This document shows, piece after piece, positions 17,187-64,000 of a DNA stretch of 64,000 nucleotides. How positions within the stretch are numbered: the stretch's first letter is position 1; every line of letters begins with the position of its first letter. The notes under the pieces were generated by a model. It was not told the origin of the DNA. It searched no databases and saw nothing but the letters and a program-made list of their open reading frames with translations. Location: the NCBI RefSeq assembly GCF_000027125.1, contig NC_017626.1, one strand, 5' to 3'. Source of the DNA: Escherichia coli 042 (lineage in GTDB: Bacteria > Pseudomonadota > Gammaproteobacteria > Enterobacterales > Enterobacteriaceae). A program made the translations under genes and the position numbers.

Positions 17187-17516
17187 ATGAAACGCTTTCC
17201 GCTATTTCTTTTATTCACCCTGCTCACGCTGTCCACCGTTCCGGCCCAGGCCGATATTATCGACGACACCATTGGCAATATTCAGCAGGCGATTAACGAT
17301 GCTTATAACCCTGACCGTGGGCGAGACTATGAAGATTCGCGCGACGACAGCTGGCAGCGTGAAGTGAACGACGATCGGCGCAGACAATATGACGATCGCC
17401 GCCGCCAGTTTGAAGATCGCCGCAGGCAGCTGGACGATCGCCAGCGCCAGCTTGATCAGGAGCGTCGGCAACTGGAGGATGAAGAGCGGAGAATGGAAGA
17501 TGAGTATGGGCGGTGA
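17187..17516 (+). CDS. yjdP: Secreted charged-repeat protein YjdP
   Basis: 109 aa; signal peptide (MKRFPLFLLFTLLTLSTVPAQA); tandem DDRRRQ-type repeats; GAGG RBS upstream. Confidence 0.8.
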   Translation: MKRFPLFLLFTLLTLSTVPAQADIIDDTIGNIQQAINDAYNPDRGRDYEDSRDDSWQREVNDDRRRQYDDRRRQFEDRRRQLDDRQRQLDQERRQLEDEERRMEDEYGR

Positions 17517-17550
17517 TGTTGAGTCTAGAGCAGGCATCGCCCCTCACCCA

Positions 17551-18321
17551 TCACTCCACCCCAATCTCCACCCCAATCTCCATCCCATCAAACCCCGCCT
17601 CAAACCCCGACGGCAGTGCGTTTTCCATCAGCCACGCATCAAACTGGTGGCTGATATGGGTCAGAATCACCCGTGGCGAGCGGATAACCTGATTCAGCGC
17701 AAGCACGGTATTTAAATCACAGTGATTACGCGGTGCATCCTCGCGCGGCGGGTGGCTGCAATCAATCACCATTACCTGTGGCTGATTATTGCGTAAAAAT
17801 TTCAGCGTTTTTTCCGGCAGGCCTGCGGTGTCAGACAGCCACGCCACCCGGCTATGTGCCGTTTCCAGTAAATAGCCGAAAGTGAGTTTCGAATGATTGA
17901 GCGGCAGCGGCGTGACCTGTAATCCCTGCAAATCAAACACTACAAACGGTTCCACCGTGTGGCTGAAATCAAGCAGGCCCGGATGTTTAAACAGATCGTC
18001 GCAGCCCTGTTCATCCGGCGGGCCGTAGACCGGGATCGAATCGCCCACGCCCCAGCGCAGCGGAAACAGCCCCTGCACGTGATCCATATGGTAGTGCGTC
18101 AGCAAAAACTGCTGGAACGATCCGGGCGACCAGCGATCGGCGAGATCGTGCAGCCCGGCGTCGATCAGGGTGATCGCGTCGTTAAACTTCACGACGCCGC
18201 TGCATGGCTGGCGGCGATACTGTGGTGAGCGCCGCGCTCTGACGCAGGCCGCGCACTCGCAGCCCCATGCCGGAACGCCCTGTGCGCCGCCGGTGCCGGT
18301 GAGCGTGAGGGTCAGACTCAT
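17551..18321 (-). CDS. phnP: PhnP, phosphoribosyl 1,2-cyclic phosphate phosphodiesterase
   Basis: 256 aa metallo-beta-lactamase fold (HYHMDH); last gene of the phn operon; C-terminus carries a 12-bp tandem duplication. Confidence 0.9.
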
Positions 18322-18322
18322 G

Positions 18323-18757
18323 TTACAGCGCCTTGGTGAAGCGGAAGTGACTCTGCTCGTAGCCTTCTCGCAGATAGAAACGGTGCGCGTCGTGGCGCTT
18401 CACGTTGGTCGAAAGCTCAGTCATTTCGGCCCCGGCCTGGCGGGCTTCTTCTTCTGCCCACGCCAGCAACTTGCTACCGACGTTCAGGCCGCGCGCCTGC
18501 GGCATCACCACCAACTCCTGAATTTCGCCGATCCAGTTGACATGATGCAGATGAAACTGCAAATGCAGGCCGATCATGCCGACAACTTCGCCATCCAGTA
18601 GCGCCAGATGGTAGCGCATGTTTGGGTCGCGCAGGTTGGCGTTAAAGCCCACGCGAAACGCGTGGTGGTCAAACTCCGCCTGTTTTAGCTCACAAATCAG
18701 CGCGTAAACTGCGTCGGTGTCGTACTGCGTAGCCGGGCGAAGCTCACAAGCAGGCAT
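18323..18757 (-). CDS. phnO: PhnO, aminoalkylphosphonate N-acetyltransferase
   Basis: 144 aa GNAT-fold protein; operon position. Confidence 0.9.
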
Positions 18758-19301
18758 GGTGTTTCTCCTTCTGATGAATCAGCGTCAGCAGCTTGTCGAC
18801 CGACTGGCGCAGGCTGCCGTCATTATTGAGCGTAAGACAATCCTGAGGAGTATAGCGGGCAGCGCGTGCCAGTCGGGCGTTAATTTCACTGGCATTTTCA
18901 CGACCACGGTTTTCGAGGCGCTGGCGCAGGATCTCCGGCGAAACCTGTAAACAAACGGGCAGCAGCGCCGATTGATAGCGCGCCCGCGCCTGCGGCAGAT
19001 GGGCGCGTGAGCCGTTGACCATCACGTCAAATCCAGCGTGCAGCCAGAGGTCAATCTCGACGCCGATGCCATAATACAGGCCGTTGGCGTGCCAGCTTAA
19101 GGCCAGAAGGTTCTGCCCCGCGCGGGTAAAAAACTCCTGCTCGCTCAGGGCGATATGGTTTTCACTTCCGGCGCTGGCGGCGCGCGTGATGTAGCGATGC
19201 GCTACCAGTAGCTGAGTTTGTTCCCGCTGGCGAAGTTCCGTCAACAGACTGTCTTTTCCGGAGCCAGAGGCCCCCATTAACCAAATCAGTTTTCCCGTCA
19301 T
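18744..19301 (-). CDS. phnN: PhnN, ribose 1,5-bisphosphate phosphokinase
   Basis: 185 aa with P-loop (GASGSGKDS); overlaps phnO and phnM. Confidence 0.9.
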
Positions 19302-20437
19302 CAGAACACCCTTTTACCCTGACGCCAGACGTGGTCGATATGAATGTGGTTGCCCTTGCGATGCGCCAGCACCAGGTCGGCGCGTTTGCCCTCGCCAATC
19401 ACCCCGCGATCCTGAAGATTAAGCGCCTGCGCCGGATTTTTAGTCACCAGCTTCACCGCCTGCGGCAGCGTAAAGCGGTTGCTCTCGTCATCGGCGACGC
19501 GAAATGCCGCATCGAGCAGGCTGGCGGGGTAGTAGTCGGAAGAGAGGATATCCAGCAGGCCAAGCTGCGCCAGTTCACTGGCCGCCACGTTGCCGGAGTG
19601 CGAACCGCCGCGCACGATATTCGGCGCGCCCATCAGCACGTTCATGCCATGCTTGCGCGAGGCTTCTGCCGCTTCGAACGTGGTGGGAAATTCGGCGATC
19701 ACGCTGCCAAGCTGGTGGGATTCGGCAACGTGCGCGTGCGTGGCGTCATCGTGGCTGGCGAGGGCAATGTGTCGCGCGCGGCACATTGCGGCGATGGTTT
19801 CGCGATTTGGCTGCGACCAGCGTGCGGCGAGCGCCAATTGCTCTTCTTCGTACTGCTGCATCTGCGCATCGGTGAGGGAATATTTGCCCTGATAATATTC
19901 GCGATACTTCTCGCGATTGGCGAACTGGCGCTGGCCTGGCGAGTGGTCCATCAGCGATACCAGCGTCACCGGTTCGCGCTGCACCAGTTTTTCAAACAGC
20001 GGCAACGTGGTGTGGTGCGGCAGTTCGCAGCGCAGGTGCAGGCGGTGCTCGGCGCGGTTGACGCCGCGTTTCTGCGTCTCTTCGATGGCGTTGATCATCT
20101 TCTCCAGATTCTCCAGCCGATCGCCGCCGTCGCGCACATCACCAATCGCCACGGCGTCCAGTACGGTGGTGATGCCGCTTGCCACCATCAGCGCGTCGTG
20201 GCTGCTCATCGCCGAATGGGCGGGCCAGTCGACTTTCGGGCGCGGGGTGAAGAATTTATCGAGGTTGTCGGTATGCAGCTCAATCAGGCCGGGTAGTAGC
20301 CAGCCACCTTCGCCGTCCATCGCTTCCGGCTGGCGGCTCTGGCTTTCGGCAAAGGCGCGAATTTCGCCATCCTGTACTTCCAGTGAACCGTGCACCACTT
20401 CGTTTTCCAGCACCAGTTTGACGTTATTGATAATCAT
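19301..20437 (-). CDS. phnM: PhnM, RPnTP diphosphatase (amidohydrolase fold)
   Basis: 378 aa; operon position; overlapping stop/start with neighbours. Confidence 0.9.
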
Positions 20438-34945: not shown

Positions 34946-36012
34946 TCTTTCTTCAGCCGTACCCAGGCCCGCGTGCCGGAAGTCTCTTGCCGGTTTTGCA
35001 GGAAAAACTGCCCGTGATGCAACTGTGTAATGCGGCTGACAATACTTAACCCCAGACCAATCCCGCCATAACGGCTGTCCATACGTACAAACGCTTTACT
35101 CAACTCCCCGCATTTACTCTCATCAATACCCGGTCCTTCATCTTCAACGGCCATGACCGCTCCGCCATCTTCTTGCAGCTTAATCATAATGTTGCTGCCT
35201 TGCGGGCTGTAACGATGGGCGTTTTCTACCAGGTTTCGCAATAACATCCGCAGCAGGGTTGCATCACCTTGAACGGTGATGTCGGCGGCGCTCTCTGGCA
35301 ATAGCAGGGTTTGCTGTCGCTGGTCGAGCATGGTACTGAGTTCGTCATACGAGGGGAGAATGACATCTTCCAGCAGTTTTACATGTTGATAATTACCGGA
35401 AGAAAATGACTGTCCGGCACGCGCCAGTTGCAGCAGCTGGGAGACACTCTCCATCATCTGATCAAGCCGTGCCACTAACGGTGCTACATCAATGTGATGC
35501 GTTTTCGCCAGCAGTTCCAGATGCAAACGCACCCCCGCCAGTGGCGTTCGCAGTTCGTGCGCGACGTCAGCGGTAAACAACCTTTCGTTATCCAGCGTGC
35601 TGGTCAGGCGACTGACCAGATCGTTCAACGCCGAAACCACCGCTTCGATTTCGAGGGTGGCGCTGTGAATGGCAATAGGCGTTAAGTTGTCGGCGGTGCG
35701 CGCTTCCAGCTCTTTTTGCAGCTCCGCCAGCGGCCGGGTGATGCGGCGTACCGCCTGATAGCAGATAAATAGCGTCAGGCTGACCATAAAGACGCCGGGG
35801 ACGATCAGGCTGGCGACCGCCTCGCGGATCTCACGCATGATGTGGCGATCGTTGTTGCGATTGTCGCGTAGCGCCTGCTCAAACAGCTGAATCTGCTCGG
35901 TACTTTCATGCCATAGCCAGAAGACGCTGATCAGCTCAAACACCAACAAAATGGCCCCAATGGTCAATATCAGCCGTTGGCGCAGCGATATTGGTCGGCG
36001 CAGAAAACGCAT
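34921..36012 (-). CDS. basS: BasS (PmrB) sensor histidine kinase
   Basis: HisKA and HATPase motifs (HELRTPL, GIGLGLSIV); start uncertain between 36012 and 36021. Confidence 0.9.
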   Translation of the reverse strand: MRFLRRPISLRQRLILTIGAILLVFELISVFWLWHESTEQIQLFEQALRDNRNNDRHIMREIREAVASLIVPGVFMVSLTLFICYQAVRRITRPLAELQKELEARTADNLTPIAIHSATLEIEAVVSALNDLVSRLTSTLDNERLFTADVAHELRTPLAGVRLHLELLAKTHHIDVAPLVARLDQMMESVSQLLQLARAGQSFSSGNYQHVKLLEDVILPSYDELSTMLDQRQQTLLLPESAADITVQGDATLLRMLLRNLVENAHRYSPQGSNIMIKLQEDGGAVMAVEDEGPGIDESKCGELSKAFVRMDSRYGGIGLGLSIVSRITQLHHGQFFLQNRQETSGTRAWVRLKKDQYVANQI

Positions 36013-36021
36013 CAGATTCAA

Positions 36022-36690
36022 TTAGTTTTCCTCATTCGCGACCAGCATATAGCCAAATCCGCGCACGGTGCGGATACGGGCTTTGCCCACTTTGTCGCGC
36101 AGATTGTGGATATGCACTTCCAGGGTGTTGGTCGAGGGTTCATTGTCCCAGTTATAGATGTCGTTGTAGAGAATTTCCCGATGCACCGGGCTGCCTGCTT
36201 TAAGCATCAGGCGCGACAGCAGAGCATATTCTTTGGGCGTCAGAATCAGTTCTTCTCCGCTCATCCATACCTGGCGGCGACCCATATTCAGCGTCAGATT
36301 GCCAACAATCAGCTCACTTTCGCCCTGATTATTATGGCGTCGTAGCAGGGCGCGGATACGGGCGTGTAACTCTTCCAGCGCAAAAGGCTTCACCAGATAG
36401 TCATCGGCACCGACATCCAGCCCGGCGATTTTGTCGGTCAGCGTATCGCGAGCGGTGAGGATCAGTACCGGCAGGGTGTATTTTTTCTGCCGGATACGGG
36501 CGAGAAAATGCAGTCCATCTTCGTCGGGTAACCCTAAATCCAGTACCACCAGGCTGTAATGACCGGCCTCAAGGCTTTGTTCCGCCATCCGCGCGGTTGT
36601 CACGCCATCGCACGCGTAGCCTTCGGTTTGCGCCGCCAGAATCAATCCCTGCAATAACAGCGTATCGTCTTCAACAATCAGAATTTTCAT
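36022..36690 (-). CDS. basR: BasR (PmrA) OmpR-family response regulator
   Basis: 222 aa with receiver domain (MKILIVEDD) and winged-helix output domain. Confidence 0.95.
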
Positions 36691-38330
36691 TCACTCACTC
36701 TCCTGCAAGTTTGCAGAATATCATCCGCAGCCTGGTAATACTTCGTCTCAACGCCAGTTAATCCCAATAGCGTGGAGAATAAATTATCTTGTGAATAGTG
36801 TTGCGTTTGCGCCTGTTTTTGCAGGCAGTTCTGGTCAACCTGATACCGTTTTTGATAATCCTCCGACAGCCACAGCAGCATCGGCACCTGTTTTTGGCTA
36901 TCCGGGGCGATGGCATAAGGCAGACCGTGCAGATAGATGCCATTTTCACCTAACGACTCACCGTGGTCAGAAAGATAAACCAGGCTGGTGGTGAATTTAT
37001 CCTGATGTTCTTTCAGCAGATTAATCGCTTTATCAACAATATAGTCGACGTAAACCAGCGTGTTGTCGTAAGTGTTCACCAGTTGCTCTTTGGTACAGGT
37101 CTGGATCTCGTTAGTGTCGCAGGTTGGGGTAAATTTCCTGAACTGCGGCGGATAGCGGTTGTAATAGGTCGGACCGTGGCTGCCGATGGTGTGTAAGACA
37201 ATCACGCCATCACCCTGCAGGTTATTGATGTACTCTTCCAGCCCGTGGAACAGCACTTCGTCATAGCATTCGCCGTTGATGCACTGACCAGGCAGATTCA
37301 GCGCGGTGACGTTCTGGTGAGGCACGCGGTCGCAGGCACCTTTACAGCCGCCATCGTTGTCATTCCACAGCACGTTGATGCCCGCTCGCTGAATGATATC
37401 CAGCACGCCTTCCTGGTGCTGTGCCAGCTCTTCTTTGTAGTGCTCACGCGGCATATCCGAGAACATGCACGGTACTGAAACTGCCGTTGCCGTGCCGCAA
37501 GATGCGGTATTAGGGAAATAGACCACGTTATCTTTTGCCAGCCGCGGGTTAGTTTCACGCGGATAGCCATTGAGGGAGAAGTTCTCCGCCCGCGAGGTTT
37601 CGCCGACAATCAGGATGGTCAAATTTTTACGTTTCTCTTTCTGCATTAATGGGTTGCGGTGCGCGTCTTCACCAATTCGCACCAGCGGCAGATTTGCCAG
37701 TCGCTGATGGGAGTACCATGACCAGCTGGCAACAATGCTGTTAGAGGGGCTTAAGGATTTCACCAGCTCTTTGTTGTTGCGGAACAATGAGGCGTAGTCT
37801 TTATAAAACAGTGCGGCGACCAGCAAAATCAGCAGTACAGACACCAGAATATTGGCTCCACGGAAAAGAACACTGCGCAGGCGCGAGGTGGCAGGTTTGA
37901 TTTTAATCCAGCAGGCAATCAGCGCAGCAAGCACGCCGCTGAATCCCAGCGTTAATAACATTTGCGGCGTCATCAACGCATAACTTTCTGCCGGAGTGGT
38001 ATCAATAATATTGGCAATCATCGAGCGGTCGATGACGATGCCGTAAGTCATTATGAAATATTGTGCAGCCGCGCCGACCAGAATAAACAGGCAGGCCAGC
38101 GGTCGATTAAGCCATAAGAAAGAGCTTAGTGTCAGGACAATATTAATCACGCTGAAGGCGACGACTGGCATCGACAAGAAAACCAGTACGTTATGCAGCG
38201 AGTCCAGCGGCAGCGCCTGCAACACCTGTTTAAAAAAGGCAATATTCAGGCAGATAGAGATATAAAAAGCGGCCAACAATAGCCAGGCGAGTAAATTCAA
38301 AGAGGGTCTTTTTAGTAGGCGCTTCAACAT
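36687..38330 (-). CDS. eptA: EptA (PmrC), lipid A phosphoethanolamine transferase
   Basis: Start chosen at [14 protein letters not shown] (547 aa); N-terminal TM domain plus sulfatase-like periplasmic domain; overlaps basR start. Confidence 0.9.
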
Positions 38331-38376
38331 CACGGTGTTTCCATCGAACAAAGTGCGCATATGCTCGCAAAGCAAA

Positions 38377-38393
38377 ATTAAGCCAACCTTAAG
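38377..38393 (-). promoter_or_regulatory. PmrA (BasR) box of the eptA-basRS promoter
   Basis: Minus strand reads CTTAAGGTTGGCTTAAT (hexamer repeat, 5-bp spacer), about 45 bp upstream of the eptA ATG and embedded in a perfect 14-bp inverted repeat. Confidence 0.65.
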
Positions 38394-38433
38394 TTCTTAA
38401 GGTTGGCTTTTATGTTTGCTGGATTAAGGGGAA

Positions 38434-39771
38434 TTAATCTTTGCTTATTGGTGCATCTAAGGGATACGGGTTTTTATGCAGCCGGTTGTAATTCAGCGCA
38501 TACATGGCGGTGATGACCATCAGGGTGACAAATGACCACATAACCTCTTTCGCCCCGGACCCCACCACGGCCCAGATGCAGTAGAGGAAGGCAATGGTAG
38601 TAACTGCCAGATATACCGGGCGTGCTTTACCAAAGTGGCCGTGGCCGAGCAGCAGTAACGCCGCACAGGTGTAAAGATATGGCACCAGTGTAAAGATGAC
38701 CGAGACGGAAGAAACCAGACCGAACTCTTTGGTCGCGTTTGGTGAAATGCTGCTGAGCTGGAAGATGGTCATCAAAATACCGACGATAATCAGCCCCGCC
38801 ACTGGCGTACCCGCTTTATTAACACGGGCAAAAATCGGTGGGAACAGTCCGTCATCGGCAGCGGCTTTCGCCGTTTGACCCGCCAGCAACGTCCAGCCGC
38901 CCAGTGAACCTAAGCAACCCGCAGCTGCGCAGAAGGAAACAATGGCCCCGGCGGTGTCACCCAACGCCATCCGTGCGGCATCACCGAATGGCGAGGCAGA
39001 AACGCGCAGTGCGGCATTAGGGATCATCCCCATAATCGCGGTGGTGGAGAGTACATAGCAAACGGCGGCAATCAATACCCCACCAATGGTGGCGATAGGG
39101 ACGTTGCGTTTCGGGTTTTTCACCACACCTGCGGCAACGGAGGCACTTTCCACACCGATGAACGACCACAGCGTAACGTTAAGGGTACTTTGAATTGCAC
39201 CGAAGGTGCCCAGGCCGCTGACGTTCCATGCCGCCATATAGGTTTCACCACGGAACCAGAACCAGCCAAATACGGCAATCCCGACGATGGGGATCAGCGC
39301 CAGCACGGTGGCAACGGCCTGCACGCGGGTGATCATTTTCGGACCGACAATATTCAGCAGGACGAAGATCCACAGCACCACGACGCAGGTGATGGTTAAT
39401 ACCAATGGATCTTTCAGAATCGGGAAGAAGTAACTTAAATAACCTACGCCAATGACCACCATGGCGATATTGCCGATCCAGCAGGCCAGCCAGTAGAGGA
39501 CGTTGGTTTGATAACCGAGAAACGGCCCAAAGCAGCGACGGGCGTAAGCGTAAGAACCACCAGGACTTGGGTCGAGGAACGACATTTTGGCGTATACCAT
39601 CGAGAGCCCCAGCGCACCGATAATCGTCACCAACCATCCATAAATGGCAATCCCGCCAGTGGAGGCCAGGTTTGCAGGTAACAGAAAAACACCTGACCCC
39701 ATAATATTCCCCGACACCATCAGGGTGACGGGGATTAAGCCCACTTTGTGAGCATCAGCATCCGAAGACAT
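38434..39771 (-). CDS. adiC: AdiC, arginine:agmatine antiporter
   Basis: 445 aa APC-family transporter; context with adiY and adiA. Confidence 0.95.
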
Positions 39772-39907
39772 AATTAAACTCCTGCGAAGGCGAGCTTCGT
39801 GACAATAAATTACGTCATATCATACGCCTGCATTCGATAGTTGAATTATTATCGACCGGGTTATCGCTGATGCCGTTATTAATATAGCTCTTCGTTAAGG
39901 TTAAAAA

Positions 39908-40669
39908 TCAGGCGACAGTGCGTTCTCTGTGCTGACTAACATAATGCAGAGGCGTCATACCGTAGAAGTCTTTAAAGACAGAAATAAAGTACGACGTACT
40001 GTTGTAGCCGCAGGATTGTGATACCTGAGAGATATTTTTACCGTCCATCATTAATTCATTGACGGCATAACGCATGCGGCAGGTGGTGATTATTTGGCTA
40101 TAACTGGTGTTTTCGCTTTTCAGCTTTTTCTTTAACAGACTCGGGCTAAGACATAAACAACCGGCTACCATACTAAGATTCCAGTCTTTGTGGATATCGC
40201 TTTCAATAATTTGATAAACGCTGTCACTTACACAATTACGTAACATATACATCATTAATGAAAGGAATTTTTTACTGTCGAGAAAACGGGATAGCACAGT
40301 GAATAATAATGCACGTGTTCGTTCCTTTTCTGACTCAGTTTCAGCGGGCATCATGCTATGTTGCGCGGCAACGCGAAAGACGTCTGGCGTCAGGCATGGC
40401 AGGGTGAGGATGGGCGTAGCGCTACGTTGCCATACTGGTATTTGCGAGAGATCTTTATTCAGAAACCGGAGGTAATCTTTGATGATGTCGTGACTAATAT
40501 GAGCAACCAAAGTGTTATTAAGAGAGGAGACGTCGATAATATTATTTTCACAATTTAATAACGCCATATGGTTAGCTTTAAGGCTAATAGGTTCTTTCCC
40601 ATTCACCCTTATCCAGACATCTTTTTCAGTCAATAAAACAATACAAGGTTGGTCGCTGCAAATCCTCAT
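39908..40669 (-). CDS. adiY: AdiY, AraC-family activator of the adi system
   Basis: 253 aa with C-terminal AraC-type HTH. Confidence 0.9.
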   Translation of the reverse strand: MRICSDQPCIVLLTEKDVWIRVNGKEPISLKANHMALLNCENNIIDVSSLNNTLVAHISHDIIKDYLRFLNKDLSQIPVWQRSATPILTLPCLTPDVFRVAAQHSMMPAETESEKERTRALLFTVLSRFLDSKKFLSLMMYMLRNCVSDSVYQIIESDIHKDWNLSMVAGCLCLSPSLLKKKLKSENTSYSQIITTCRMRYAVNELMMDGKNISQVSQSCGYNSTSYFISVFKDFYGMTPLHYVSQHRERTVA

Positions 40670-44661: not shown

Positions 44662-46017
44662 ATGATGTCTGCACCCAAAATTACATTTATCGGCGCTGGT
44701 TCGACGATTTTCGTTAAAAATATTCTTGGTGATGTGTTCCATCGCGAGGCGCTGAAAACGGCGCATATTGCCCTGATGGACATTGATCCCACCCGCCTGG
44801 AAGAGTCGCATATTGTGGTGCGCAAGCTGATGGATTCAGCAGGGGCCAGCGGCAAAATCACCTGCCACACCCAACAGAAAGAAGCCTTACAGGATGCCGA
44901 TTTTGTCGTGGTGGCATTTCAGATTGGCGGTTATGAACCTTGCACGGTGACTGATTTCGAGGTCTGTAAGCGGCATGGTCTGGAACAAACCATTGCCGAT
45001 ACGTTGGGGCCGGGCGGTATTATGCGCGCGCTACGTACCATTCCGCATCTGTGGCAAATTTGCGAGGACATGACGGAAGTCTGCCCCGATGCCACCATGC
45101 TCAACTACGTTAACCCAATGGCGATGAATACCTGGGCGATGTATGCCCGCTATCCGCATATCAAACAGGTAGGGCTGTGCCATTCGGTGCAGGGAACGGC
45201 GGAAGAGCTGGCGCGTGACCTCAATATCGACCCGGCTACGCTGCGTTACCGTTGCGCAGGTATCAACCATATGGCGTTTTACCTGGAACTGGAGCGCAAA
45301 ACCGCCGACGGCAGTTACGTGAATCTCTACCCGGAACTGCTGGCGGCTTATGAAGCAGGGCAGGCACCGAAGCCGAATATTCATGGCAATACTCGCTGCC
45401 AGAATATTGTGCGCTATGAAATGTTCAAAAAGCTGGGCTACTTCGTCACGGAATCGTCAGAACATTTTGCTGAGTACACACCGTGGTTTATTAAGCCAGG
45501 TCGTGAGGATTTGATTGAGCGTTATAAAGTACCGCTGGATGAGTACCCGAAACGCTGCGTCGAGCAGCTGGCGAACTGGCATAAAGAGCTGGAGGAGTAT
45601 AAAAACGCCTCCCGGATTGATATTAAACCGTCACGGGAATATGCCAGCACAATCATGAACGCTATCTGGACTGGCGAGCCGAGTGTGATTTACGGCAACG
45701 TCCGTAACGATGTTTTGATTGATAACCTGCCACAAGGATGTTGCGTGGAAGTAGCCTGTCTGGTTGATGCTAATGGCATTCAGCCGACCAAAGTCGGTAC
45801 GCTACCTTCGCATCTGGCCGCTCTGATGCAAACCAACATCAACGTACAGACGCTGCTGACCGAAGCCATTCTTACGGAAAATCGCGACCGTGTTTACCAC
45901 GCCGCGATGATGGACCCGCATACTGCCGCCGTGCTGGGCATTGACGAAATATATGCTCTTGTTGACGACCTGATTGCTGCCCACGGCGACTGGCTGCCAG
46001 GCTGGTTGCACCGCTAA
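44662..46017 (+). CDS. melA: MelA, alpha-galactosidase (GH4, NAD/Mn-dependent)
   Basis: 451 aa; N-terminal Rossmann motif (KITFIGAGSTIF); GGAG RBS. Confidence 0.95.
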   Translation: MMSAPKITFIGAGSTIFVKNILGDVFHREALKTAHIALMDIDPTRLEESHIVVRKLMDSAGASGKITCHTQQKEALQDADFVVVAFQIGGYEPCTVTDFEVCKRHGLEQTIADTLGPGGIMRALRTIPHLWQICEDMTEVCPDATMLNYVNPMAMNTWAMYARYPHIKQVGLCHSVQGTAEELARDLNIDPATLRYRCAGINHMAFYLELERKTADGSYVNLYPELLAAYEAGQAPKPNIHGNTRCQNIVRYEMFKKLGYFVTESSEHFAEYTPWFIKPGREDLIERYKVPLDEYPKRCVEQLANWHKELEEYKNASRIDIKPSREYASTIMNAIWTGEPSVIYGNVRNDVLIDNLPQGCCVEVACLVDANGIQPTKVGTLPSHLAALMQTNINVQTLLTEAILTENRDRVYHAAMMDPHTAAVLGIDEIYALVDDLIAAHGDWLPGWLHR

Positions 46018-46664
46018 GGGGTTATCGCTTCCGGCGCTCTGGTTATCAAGCCAAAGCGCCGTAGCTGGCGGCAATGCAAGCGAGCGAGGAATATCACCGT
46101 CGTTAATGCGCCAAGCAGCGCGCAGAACATATCGGATTGCGTGTCCCACTGGTCGCCCTGGGTGCCGAGAAAATCATCCGCTCCCTGACCCATTGCCAGC
46201 GCCGCCCACCACTCGATTAATTCATACATCGCGCTTATCGCCAGCGCCACGCAACAGACCAGAAACGCCACCATTTTACGTCCGCGAACGTACATCCCGC
46301 GCACAAGGATCTCACGTGCCACCAGTGCAGGCACCAGCCCCTGGAAAAAATGCCCCAGCTTGTCATACGGATTACGGCTCAACCCCAGCCATTCCTGCAC
46401 CTCAAAACCAACGGGGACTTTCGCGTAGGTGTATTGTCCGCCGACCATCAGGATGATGGCGTGAAAGAAAATGAGCGTATAGAGCAGCGGCGTTAACGGA
46501 TAACGTCTGGCGGTGGCAAGCAGTAGCGGCACGACAATAATCACCGGTGTCACTTCCATCAGCCAGGTGAGTTTGTCATGGGCCGAAATGCCGGTATAAA
46601 TCAGGATTAACGTTAGCGCCAGTGCGCCGGTGTTAAGAATTAACGGCTTGAGTGTGCGGGTCAT
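46014..46664 (-). CDS. yjdF: YjdF, inner membrane protein (C-terminus probably altered)
   Basis: 216 aa hydrophobic ORF; its stop (complement of 46014-46016) overlaps the melA stop codon by 2 nt. Confidence 0.8.
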   Translation of the reverse strand: MTRTLKPLILNTGALALTLILIYTGISAHDKLTWLMEVTPVIIVVPLLLATARRYPLTPLLYTLIFFHAIILMVGGQYTYAKVPVGFEVQEWLGLSRNPYDKLGHFFQGLVPALVAREILVRGMYVRGRKMVAFLVCCVALAISAMYELIEWWAALAMGQGADDFLGTQGDQWDTQSDMFCALLGALTTVIFLARLHCRQLRRFGLITRAPEAITP

Positions 46665-61505: not shown

Positions 61506-63044
61506 TTATTCTGAAGCGAGAAATTTGTCGAGATAAGGTACAACATAAGGAACAGAAGTCTGGAATATACCATTTTCAATCCAGTAAAGGGTGTTTGCCC
61601 CTGGGCGTAAATTAAAGGCGGTGAGATATGCATCAGCTGCTTCCCGGTTCATCCCCTTCATTTCATAAACCTTGCCAAGCAACACATAATTTAGCCAGGA
61701 CATTTCAAGATCAATGCCAGTATTTATCGCCTGGTAAGACTCATCTGTTTTACCTTTTACCAGAGCACTGACCGCTTTTATTTGATATATAATGGACAGG
61801 TTATTCAATTCCGGTAGTGTAACAATGTTATCTATTTCTGTGTTCAGTGCTGCTAATTGTTTTTCATCTAAAGGATGTTGAGAATGGCGCACGATATCAA
61901 CTAATGCTTTTTCTGCTCTCGCGTAGGTAAATTCTGGGGATGATTGAACAATCTCACCTAATAATTCACTGGCACGGTTCAATGATTTATCATCGCCATG
62001 CAGTAAATAATCATGTGCCTGATAAAAATTAGTTAATAACGCACCACGATGAGGCAAAATTTGCTGGAGCATCTCCTGCATTCGTTGTGGCCACGGTTGG
62101 TTTAACGCTTTTGATAAACTCTGGAGTAAATCATTTTGAATCGCCAGCTGATTACCGTTAGTGATGACATAACGTTTATCCAGCATGGTTGAACCATCTG
62201 CATTGTCTACCAATTTTACCGACATAAAGCATTGTTGAGCACGGTATTGGCGCTGATTAACAAACGCAATAGATAATGTTTTACCGGAACTGCTCGGTTC
62301 ATCAATGTTGTAGTTGATTTTGTCATGCACCATAAAGGTGGAGAAGGTGTTAAGTGATGTCGCCACCAAATCACCCACGCCTATCGCGTAAGAGAGCTGA
62401 TACGGGGAACTCCAGCTGTTACAACTTTTATTTACCATATTAATGTCAATATCGCGTGGATTGAGCAAAATACGCGATTTGCTCATCGGAAGACGTGTAT
62501 CAAGACTTGAAAACGCTACCAGTGCTACACAGATACCTAACGACAACAGGAAAAAAAACCATACCCAAAAGGTAGTGAATCGTTTGCTTTTAACTGGGGA
62601 TTGTTCAGGTGGCGTTGCGGTGTTTTGAATGTTAAGACTGTGGGAGGGAGAATCTGTGTCAGGAACCGCCTCTGGTATAGGGGGAGGCGAAGATAGCATT
62701 ATTTCCTCTCCCTCTTCTTCGCTGTACCAGATAACCGGCACCATTAATTTATAGCCGCGCTTTGGTACAGTAGCGATATAGACAGGACTATCTTCATCAT
62801 TATCTTTTAATGACTTACGTAGTTCTGAGATACTCTGCGTCACAACGTGATTGGTGACAATACTTCTCTTCCAGACATTATCGATAAGTTCATCCCTGCT
62901 AAGTACTTCGCCACTGTGTTGAGCAAAGAAAACCAGAAGATCGATTAATCTCGGCTCAAGGGTAAGTTGACGCCCATTGCGGCTAATTTGGTTTATGGAC
63001 GGAGTAACAAGCCATTCGCCAACGCGAACTACAGGTTGTTGCAT
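61506..63044 (-). CDS. cadC: CadC, membrane-integrated ToxR-like activator of cadBA
   Basis: 512 aa; N-terminal winged-helix DNA-binding domain, single TM segment, periplasmic sensor domain. Confidence 0.95.
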   Translation of the reverse strand: MQQPVVRVGEWLVTPSINQISRNGRQLTLEPRLIDLLVFFAQHSGEVLSRDELIDNVWKRSIVTNHVVTQSISELRKSLKDNDEDSPVYIATVPKRGYKLMVPVIWYSEEEGEEIMLSSPPPIPEAVPDTDSPSHSLNIQNTATPPEQSPVKSKRFTTFWVWFFFLLSLGICVALVAFSSLDTRLPMSKSRILLNPRDIDINMVNKSCNSWSSPYQLSYAIGVGDLVATSLNTFSTFMVHDKINYNIDEPSSSGKTLSIAFVNQRQYRAQQCFMSVKLVDNADGSTMLDKRYVITNGNQLAIQNDLLQSLSKALNQPWPQRMQEMLQQILPHRGALLTNFYQAHDYLLHGDDKSLNRASELLGEIVQSSPEFTYARAEKALVDIVRHSQHPLDEKQLAALNTEIDNIVTLPELNNLSIIYQIKAVSALVKGKTDESYQAINTGIDLEMSWLNYVLLGKVYEMKGMNREAADAYLTAFNLRPGANTLYWIENGIFQTSVPYVVPYLDKFLASE

Positions 63045-63625
63045 AATAGAAACTCATTCGAAAAGGGAATGATGCAATGATAATTGCCACAACCTATTTT
63101 TACCATCTATAGATGGGTTTATTTACATATTATTGGTGAATGCAAGACGTTATTTTTACCAGACATAAACTTCTTGATCACATAGTATTGAGAAAGGATT
63201 TTACTGAGAACCAGAAGTAATATTCCTTACCATCAAAATTCATCATCTTTGCCAAAGAAAAATGTTCAGAAAATAATCCATGGAAAATTGTCCGGAGCGC
63301 TTACTATTTTAATGGATTGTTAGTCTTTGCATGAGCAAGCGGACTGATACATTTCTCTTTGTTCTCATTCAGAAAATCTCATCAGTCGGCGTTCAGACCG
63401 GTGTTGTGCTTTATGGATGCGTTACGCTCCTGATGACGTCATTTGACATTCAACAGCATCACGGGGTCGCACGACATTTCACGTCAGTCAGCGCTATAGC
63501 TCAGGAACAAATTTTCCCGAATTGGGATATACCCGCAAAATGCTGGTGTTGTGGGGAGAATTTGGTTGAGTTCGGTAGAAATGATTTTTAGGCAGAACGC
63601 TTAAATTGTGGCGTCCTGAAACGAA

Positions 63626-63651
63626 AAACGGACCTCCGTGGAGGTCCGTTT
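63626..63651 (-). terminator. Intrinsic terminator downstream of the tRNA-Phe (pheU) site
   Basis: 11-bp stem aaacggacctc/gaggtccgttt with 4-nt loop, followed on the minus strand by a U-rich tract (tttcgtttc). Confidence 0.65.
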
Positions 63652-63660
63652 ATATGAATT

Positions 63661-63682
63661 TGGTGCCGGACTCGGAATCGAA
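63661..63682 (-). other. pheU: Truncated 3' end of tRNA-Phe (pheU) without the rest of the gene: probable att-site direct repeat
   Basis: tggtgccggactcggaatcgaa is the reverse complement of the tRNA-Phe 3' end (..TTCGATTCCGAGTCCGG-CACCA) with one C missing; sequence beyond 63682 does not continue the tRNA. Confidence 0.7.
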
Positions 63683-64000
63683 AATTTCTTTTATCATATT
63701 GATATTAATATAATTTATTTGGTTTGATTAAAAATGTACCCTCAATTATACCCGCAGTCCCTTTTGATATCGAAAGGGAATCACACTCGGGATCAGGCTG
63801 AGAGCACAGAAGGAAAGTACCTGGCTATTATATCGTTAATTCTGTCAATCAGTTCCAGCCTTTTGAAAGTGATGTGTGCAGATCCCTTCTTAAAGTATTT
63901 AATGATGAACATCTCGTCTTCATAGCGCTCTTTACCCTGAACGGACTGGATGTGACCATCCAGACGAATAGTGATGTTTTCCCGGTTGTCGGGGATCGGT
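63683..64000. mobile_element. Distal end of a probable genomic island integrated at the tRNA-Phe att site (continues beyond window)
   Basis: Abrupt change to AT-rich sequence immediately after the tRNA 3'-end fragment; contains the 3' end of a minus-strand ORF. Confidence 0.5.
63793..63999 (-). CDS. C-terminal 68 codons of a hypothetical island protein (start beyond window end)
   Basis: Open minus-strand frame from the window edge to a TGA (complement of 63793-63795): ...ENITIRLDGHIQSVQGKERYEDEMFIIKYFKKGSAHITFKRLELIDRINDIIARYFPSVLSA; no identity assigned. Confidence 0.45.
   Translation of the reverse strand, partial: PIPDNRENITIRLDGHIQSVQGKERYEDEMFIIKYFKKGSAHITFKRLELIDRINDIIARYFPSVLSA

Follow-up and report, generated by a model that had tools for sequence, protein, structure and literature searches.

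The window, by which we mean the whole 64,000-nucleotide stretch of DNA analysed here, ends beyond cadC, at the site where E. coli K-12 carries the tRNA-Phe gene pheU. cadC (61506-63044, minus strand), the conserved chromosomal gene flanking this site, is intact and encodes 512 amino acids; its collinear counterpart carries the cadC annotation in K-12, EC556, BEC1-S17-ESBL-09 (hereafter BEC1-S17) and CFT073. Beyond cadC, and likewise on the minus strand, lie the equivalent of the K-12 pseudogene yjdQ (63307-63497), about 160 bp of DNA that holds a rho-independent terminator (63498-63660), a 22-nt copy of the tRNA-Phe 3′ end (63661-63682), an AT-rich non-coding segment (63683-63792), and the 3′ end of a gene that runs past the last base of the window (63793-64000). 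In K-12 MG1655, the order is cadC, yjdQ, pheU and dicD (yjdC), contiguous and with no island.

A fragment of tRNA-Phe at the break with K-12

The fragment that marks the junction (TGGTGCCGGACTCGGAATCGAA, 63661-63682, minus strand) corresponds, in reverse complement, to the 3′ end of tRNA-Phe, except that its CCC run is one C short. On the tRNA strand, its 22 nt align with tRNA-Phe nucleotides 54-76 (TTCGATTCCGAGTCC-GGCACCA), one G of the GGG run being absent. The 22-mer has a single match in the window and none in 100 shuffles. The initial annotation had reported this match with its missing C, as well as the lack of an intact pheU, and our searches bear it out on both points: the full 76-nt tRNA-Phe was not found in the window, even with three mismatches allowed, and ARAGORN detected no tRNA in the 64 kb.

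Aligned with K-12 MG1655, the window is collinear from cadC through yjdQ and the terminator to position 63682, where the alignment breaks exactly. The break point corresponds to tRNA nucleotide 54, the 23rd nucleotide counted from the tRNA 3′ end. Beyond it, K-12 continues into the body of the tRNA and then dicD (yjdC), and the window continues into unrelated DNA with total divergence; collinearity with yjdC/dicD, which the initial annotation had named as evidence against an island, fails past 63682. Nor does the fragment run on into a full tRNA, whether here or in the approximately 1,074 complete genomes that have the identical junction.

These counts come from a search of 5,426 complete E. 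coli genomes. The unoccupied K-12 arrangement was present in 3,687 of them (1.7-kb query, at least 80% coverage in one place), and the junction was present in about 1,074, or about a fifth (97-nt query covering terminator, core and arm). The junction together with the end of the adjoining gene (601-bp segment, at least 80% of its length) was found in 745 complete genomes, where the annotation at the matching place reads ‘DUF4942 domain-containing protein’.

A core one C short is the usual imperfect attR in publications on pheU and pheV islands, and is neither an error nor peculiar to the window genome. When we searched with a synthetic 97-nt junction query in which CCC was restored, the CCC was kept in only 7 of the best 60 of the 1,074 junctions (two perfect matches and five more with the 97-nt span); the other genomes among the matches listed, such as CFT073 and EC556, carry the deletion in a 96-nt form. 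The same one-base deletion was found at the pheV attR of APEC O1, the genome used for the pheV comparison. In the literature, the string TTCGATTCCGAGTCCGG-CACCA is tabulated as the GI-pheV attR in APEC O1, S88, ED1a, H10407, 55989 and others (PMC11537424), and the 22-bp repeat at pheU and pheV has been described as shifted relative to K-12, a ‘frame shift’ (Saile et al. 2018, PMC6174562).

The deletion thus occurs at two tRNA-Phe loci, always beside a homologous island-side arm of ~105 bp, and the tRNA at attL is intact. Compared with that intact tRNA, the core has a one-base deletion, so the attR and attL cores are not identical. Judging from these comparisons, the deletion most likely travels with the element and belongs to its attP, and strand exchange would therefore take place 3′ of the GGG run. 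Counting against this, at least 7 genomes combine this island arm with a perfect CCC repeat.

The island side and complete islands in relatives

The segment between the core and the stop codon of the adjoining gene (63683-63792, minus strand), which we call the island-side (P) arm, is AT-rich and non-coding, and is kept between pheU and pheV islands. The initial annotation had also remarked on AT-rich DNA past the fragment, and the GC content is indeed 25% in 63650-63749, compared with 39-49% within the adjoining gene and ~40% in cadC, with only 318 bp of the island visible. About 105 bp beside the core are homologous between the window, the pheU attR of CFT073 and BEC1-S17, and the pheV attR of APEC O1, and the homology to APEC O1 holds even though the adjoining gene there differs. 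Such conservation between pheU and pheV islands is compatible with a role of the arm in integrase binding. A promoter-like site (63745-63773, minus strand; TCGATA, 17-nt spacer, TATAAT; 10/12 matches) lies just downstream of the stop codon and reads outward over the attR core toward the terminator-bearing DNA and cadC; such sites are no commoner in this region than in shuffles.

The gene that runs off the window (63793-64000, minus strand; 68 codons and a stop codon at 63793-63795) was present as the initial annotation had described, but it need not be called unidentified. Its 68 visible residues are 100% identical to the C-terminus of a 281-residue protein of EC556 (WP_001280493.1), which matches the Pfam family DUF4942 (PF13708) over residues 87-275 with E = 5.5e-66; an NCBIfam scan returned no family for either the 68-residue peptide or the full-length protein. 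The gene is Z1226-like, and Z1226, a ‘putative restriction methylase’, has been placed near the 3′ terminus of pheU, pheV and selC insertions (Saile et al. 2018, PMC6174562). In every relative examined, the same block ends at the repeat: DUF932, antirestriction, RadC/JAB, DUF987, YeeU/CbeA antitoxin, CbtA toxin, DUF5983, DUF957 and DUF4942. The window holds only the last 68 codons of DUF4942, and the remainder of this yee (CbtA/CbeA toxin-antitoxin) module is seen in the relatives, from which we conclude that the ORF is, by homology, the gene that closes the conserved yee/CbtA-CbeA module of P4-integrase (CP4-like) islands. A 63-aa plus-strand ORF (63734-63925) antisense to DUF4942 is unannotated in every relative examined and was rejected as spurious.

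The islands of relatives show what may be expected at the far end. EC556 has, in order, intact pheU, an integrase gene, ~21.5 kb of island, DUF4942, the core, the terminator, the yjdQ remnant and cadC; the 421-aa tyrosine integrase starts 198 bp downstream of pheU, and the cargo includes Ag43. BEC1-S17 ends in the same way, with a full-length integrase beside intact pheU, and has ~54.5 kb between the two ends, with microcin H47, phosphoethanolamine transferase and TerB/helicase genes and a second integrase remnant. Thus, the initial reading of this junction as the attR end of an island holds, since junction-sharing genomes have an intact pheU at the far end with a P4-type tyrosine integrase about 200 bp on. 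CFT073, compared at its cadC-side end, has DUF4942, core, terminator, integrase remnant and cadC as in the window; its island, PAI-CFT073-pheU, carries pap, ireA and pgt and was published as 52 kb (4919569-4971387; PMC7545054). In NRZ106056, the island exceeds 50 kb and carries cit, acnB and lsr as well as dynamin/RdcB/patatin genes. The ends of the islands are therefore kept among relatives and the cargo is not: BEC1-S17 and NRZ106056 are identical to the window over its last 3-5 kb of chromosome, yet their cargo differs considerably. An identical flank is therefore no guide to cargo, and what lies past position 64000 is not predictable from the junction.

Several further observations were made in these genomes. 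In NRZ106056, genes for a dynamin-family protein, an RdcB-family protein and a patatin-like phospholipase lie beside the yee module (35947-40300 of retrieved segment L010), and the cit, acnB and lsr operons lie further in, with a group II intron. The second integrase remnant of BEC1-S17 (40348-40533 of segment L007) is ~4.4 kb inside the pheU island, after the phosphoethanolamine transferase and outer-membrane protein genes, and hints at tandem accretion of islands there too. The terminal module has been hit repeatedly: IS21 interrupts both cbtA of NRZ106056 and the CFT073 DUF4942 gene, and in EC556 the DUF5983 gene is truncated.

The chromosome on the cadC side also varies. Three EC556-type pig isolates, whose island end is the closest to that of the window (99.8%), have a cadC split by IS1 (17330-19645 of EC556 segment L001), unlike the intact cadC of the window. 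The window lacks melB (melibiose permease): melA (44662-46017) abuts yjdF (46014-46664), with the junction at 46014-46038, a yjdF ORF of 216 rather than 209 aa, and ~1,665 bp of BEC1-S17 absent between the two genes. EC556 has the melB deletion as well. Between 52000 and 64000, the backbone is a mosaic, with 0 mismatches to BEC1-S17 from ~58.5 kb to 63,709 and 1-2% divergence upstream of ~58 kb; there are also 0 mismatches to NRZ106056 from 60.4 kb to 63,710. In a megablast of the last 20 kb against complete genomes, none exceeded 99.0% identity.

The junction shares most of its parts with islands described before. PAI-CFT073-pheU (PAI II CFT073) of uropathogenic E. coli occupies the same site between dicD/yjdC and cadC, and has the same attR core including the one-base deletion, the same island-side arm and the same terminator/yjdQ flank. 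DUF4942 is likewise its terminal gene, with the yee module adjoining, and its published coordinates start at the DUF4942 gene remnant (PMC7545054). CFT073 differs from the window by ~2% in the compared stretch, an IS21-family element interrupts its DUF4942 gene, and its cargo is not to be assumed for the window genome. The GI-pheV family, with intP4 integrases and a ‘23-bp imperfect attR’ (PLoS Genet 2024, PMC11537424), has an attR string identical to the window, a homologous island-side arm, and the same integrase-proximal arm and terminator after the intact tRNA; the integrase type is reported to be common to pheV and pheU islands (PMC7686366). GI-pheV differs in occupying the other tRNA-Phe locus, with another chromosomal flank; this flank supplies a terminator of its own and lacks a fossil arm, and homology with the element therefore ends at CCA. 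Finally, pheU and pheV insertions in LEE-negative STEC have a 22-bp direct repeat shifted by one base relative to K-12, Z1226 and a YeeP-YeeV module, as in the window, but in other strains and with other cargo, and a fossil integrase on the cadC side is absent from that paper's discussion (Saile et al. 2018, PMC6174562).

An older integrase remnant and arm on the cadC side

On the cadC side of the core, a hairpin at 63626-63651 (minus strand) has a stem of 11-12 bp followed by a T-run, and the folded segment has a minimum free energy of −23.3 kcal/mol (z = −2.8). The initial annotation had correctly placed a tRNA terminator hairpin here; we add that the terminator belongs not to the native chromosome but to the arm of an older island. 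The ~160 bp that contain it (63498-63660, minus strand) are homologous to the sequence found after intact pheU in EC556 and BEC1-S17 and after intact pheV in APEC O1. BLAST of this DNA against modern attL arms, that is, the intergenic regions between pheU or pheV and the integrase gene, gave 91-94% identity over 156 bp including the core. We therefore refer to it as a fossil integrase-proximal (P′) arm.

Next to this arm is what remains of a P4-type integrase gene (63307-63497, minus strand), recovered when the end of the window was searched by tblastn with the integrase of the EC556 island. Matches cover residues 1-10, 359-391 and 397-420, with a combined E = 1e-10: the first at 63468-63497, the second at 63380-63463 with an internal stop, and the third at 63307-63378 in another frame. 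The first 10 codons, with ATG changed to ATA, are thus joined to the last ~62 codons, which are frameshifted, and ~350 middle codons are deleted. The three-piece pattern is identical in K-12, where the annotation here is yjdQ, and PGAP labels it ‘integrase, frameshifted, incomplete’. An 86-aa plus-strand ORF (63331-63591) antisense to this remnant, unannotated in every relative examined, was rejected as spurious.

By these homologies, the terminator and ~350 bp of cadC flank (63307-63660) do not belong to the native chromosome but go back to an older P4-type island, whose attL arm and deleted integrase gene, yjdQ, they preserve as fossils. This older layer is present in all E. coli including K-12, and the K-12-type ‘empty’ site is itself a fossil attL. 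Because the layer left by an earlier P4-type island lies on the cadC side, the pheU site has been used at least twice. The duplication has a practical consequence: short queries for the ‘empty’ site were misleading because the fossil arm duplicates the arm of modern islands. We discarded a count made with a 376-bp K-12 query (5,054 ‘full’ matches), which was confounded by modern islands, in which the intact tRNA is likewise followed by this terminator arm.

Since the fossil flank is homologous to the modern attL arm, the imperfect direct repeats on either side of the island extend over ~156 bp in two complete relatives, well beyond the 22 bp of the core. At this length, the repeats could support RecA-dependent deletion or gene conversion. 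When the attL arm of BEC1-S17 (35876-36240 of segment L007) was compared with the window (63500-63682), lineage-specific SNPs were in common with the attR fossil for ~100 bp from the core, after which the arm was of the island type. Such a switch is the pattern expected from a crossover or gene conversion within the ~156-bp repeat, and with few genomes compared it suggests such an event only as a lead.

Searches for other signals in this region were negative. An Rfam scan of 63000-64000 at E ≤ 1 found no RNA family over the tRNA fragment or the arms, and a match to a eukaryotic lncRNA was dismissed as chance (16 bits against a gathering score of 50 bits). A search for short repeats in the arms returned only short two-copy families, indistinguishable from chance, and we claim no integrase arm sites.

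Integration into pheU and alternative histories

The K-12 cryptic P4-like prophages CP4-6, CP4-44 and CP4-57, and P4 at leuX, use a tyrosine integrase that acts on the 3′ end of a tRNA gene, and the element re-supplies that end. The K-12 CP4 elements carry yee-type toxin-antitoxin modules, and the CP4 prophages and P4 use different tRNA targets from the pheU island. In contrast with these elements, the islands of the relatives (EC556, BEC1-S17, CFT073 and NRZ106056) have no annotated phage replication, structural or lysis protein, and we regard them as islands, not as demonstrable prophages.

We are highly confident that, in its last 340 bases, the window shows the attR junction at the distal end of an island of the CP4/P4-integrase family lying in the 3′ end of pheU. 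The attR anatomy is seen in the window, and the complete island architecture is seen in the relatives; from these, the window genome would be expected to have the same attL. By the mechanism established for the P4/CP4 family, which we extend to the window genome, a circular form of the island would recombine through its tyrosine integrase, its attP core pairing with the identical last ~23 nt of pheU. An intact tRNA completed by island DNA, followed by the island terminator and integrase gene, would then stand at the far end (attL) past the window, and the displaced copy of the core would stay at attR. The present island would in this way have re-entered the tRNA and pushed the older fossil attL to its distal side.

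Alternatives that deny an island fare poorly. An assembly or windowing artefact, a simple deletion of pheU or an IS event has in its favor only that the window stops 318 bp past the fragment, and is so improbable that we set it aside. Non-tRNA sequence runs for those 318 bp within the window, the identical junction recurs in ~1,074 independently assembled complete genomes, the break coincides with the canonical repeat boundary known from publications on pheU and pheV islands, and the adjoining DNA is a known island module. With the exact break in the K-12 alignment and the ~1,074 genomes that share the junction, we rejected both the artefact and the simple-deletion readings. We also give little credence to a decayed boundary, in which attR and the yee module persist while loss or rearrangement has affected the integrase, attL or a large part of the island, leaving an immobile remnant past the window. 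tRNA-Phe islands are often eroded (recognisable repeats were present in only 27/41 pheV islands; PMC11537424), the terminal module of relatives has suffered the IS insertions and truncation noted above for NRZ106056 cbtA, CFT073 DUF4942 and EC556 DUF5983, and an imperfect core may lower excision. Yet EC556 and BEC1-S17, the two relatives examined at the far end, keep a full-length integrase beside intact pheU, and the 68 visible DUF4942 codons are intact and identical to full-length genes.

A more serious alternative, which we consider possible though somewhat unlikely, accepts the island boundary but not site-specific integration in this lineage. The island end could have been imported with its flanking chromosome by homologous recombination, or it could have arisen by a RecA-dependent crossover in the ~156-bp fossil arm. 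The mosaic backbone is consistent with import, as the window is identical to BEC1-S17 up to 63,709 and to NRZ106056 up to 63,710 and is 1-2% different from BEC1-S17 upstream of ~58 kb; so is the occurrence of the same junction, with its deletion, in over 1,000 genomes whose cargo varies widely. A crossover could likewise account for the BEC1-S17 attL arm, with fossil-arm SNPs for ~100 bp from the core and island-type sequence thereafter. However, mosaicism of the backbone is usual in E. coli and is no specific sign of island transfer, and the three or four genomes compared are too few to place breakpoints. Moreover, import would change only the history of the junction and not its identity.

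Returning to integration at pheU, we can also imagine a bolder picture, to which we attach a low probability, in which the site is a layered hotspot. Here, the ‘native’ pheU terminator of all E. coli would be island-derived, the ~156-bp repeats rather than the 22-nt core would drive island gain, loss and conversion by RecA, and the deleted core would mark the element heritably and place strand exchange within the final ~5 nt of the tRNA. Separately, and as part of the same improbable picture, the unseen island body in an under-sampled lineage could carry undescribed cargo.

The pheU boundary is real but already known, in that the core repeat, its one-base deletion and the terminal gene have all been published. 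What we add is the identity of the ORF, the population figures, and an explicit fossil attL layer with long flanking repeats. For the window genome, the junction means that accessory DNA is present at pheU, a main E. coli hotspot for virulence and fitness islands (pap, LEE, aerobactin, microcins), and annotators of this genome should examine the DNA beyond cadC. Because the K-12-type ‘empty’ site is, by its homologies, a fossil attL, present pheU islands sit between long imperfect repeats, which bears both on the stability of these islands and on how their boundaries are called.
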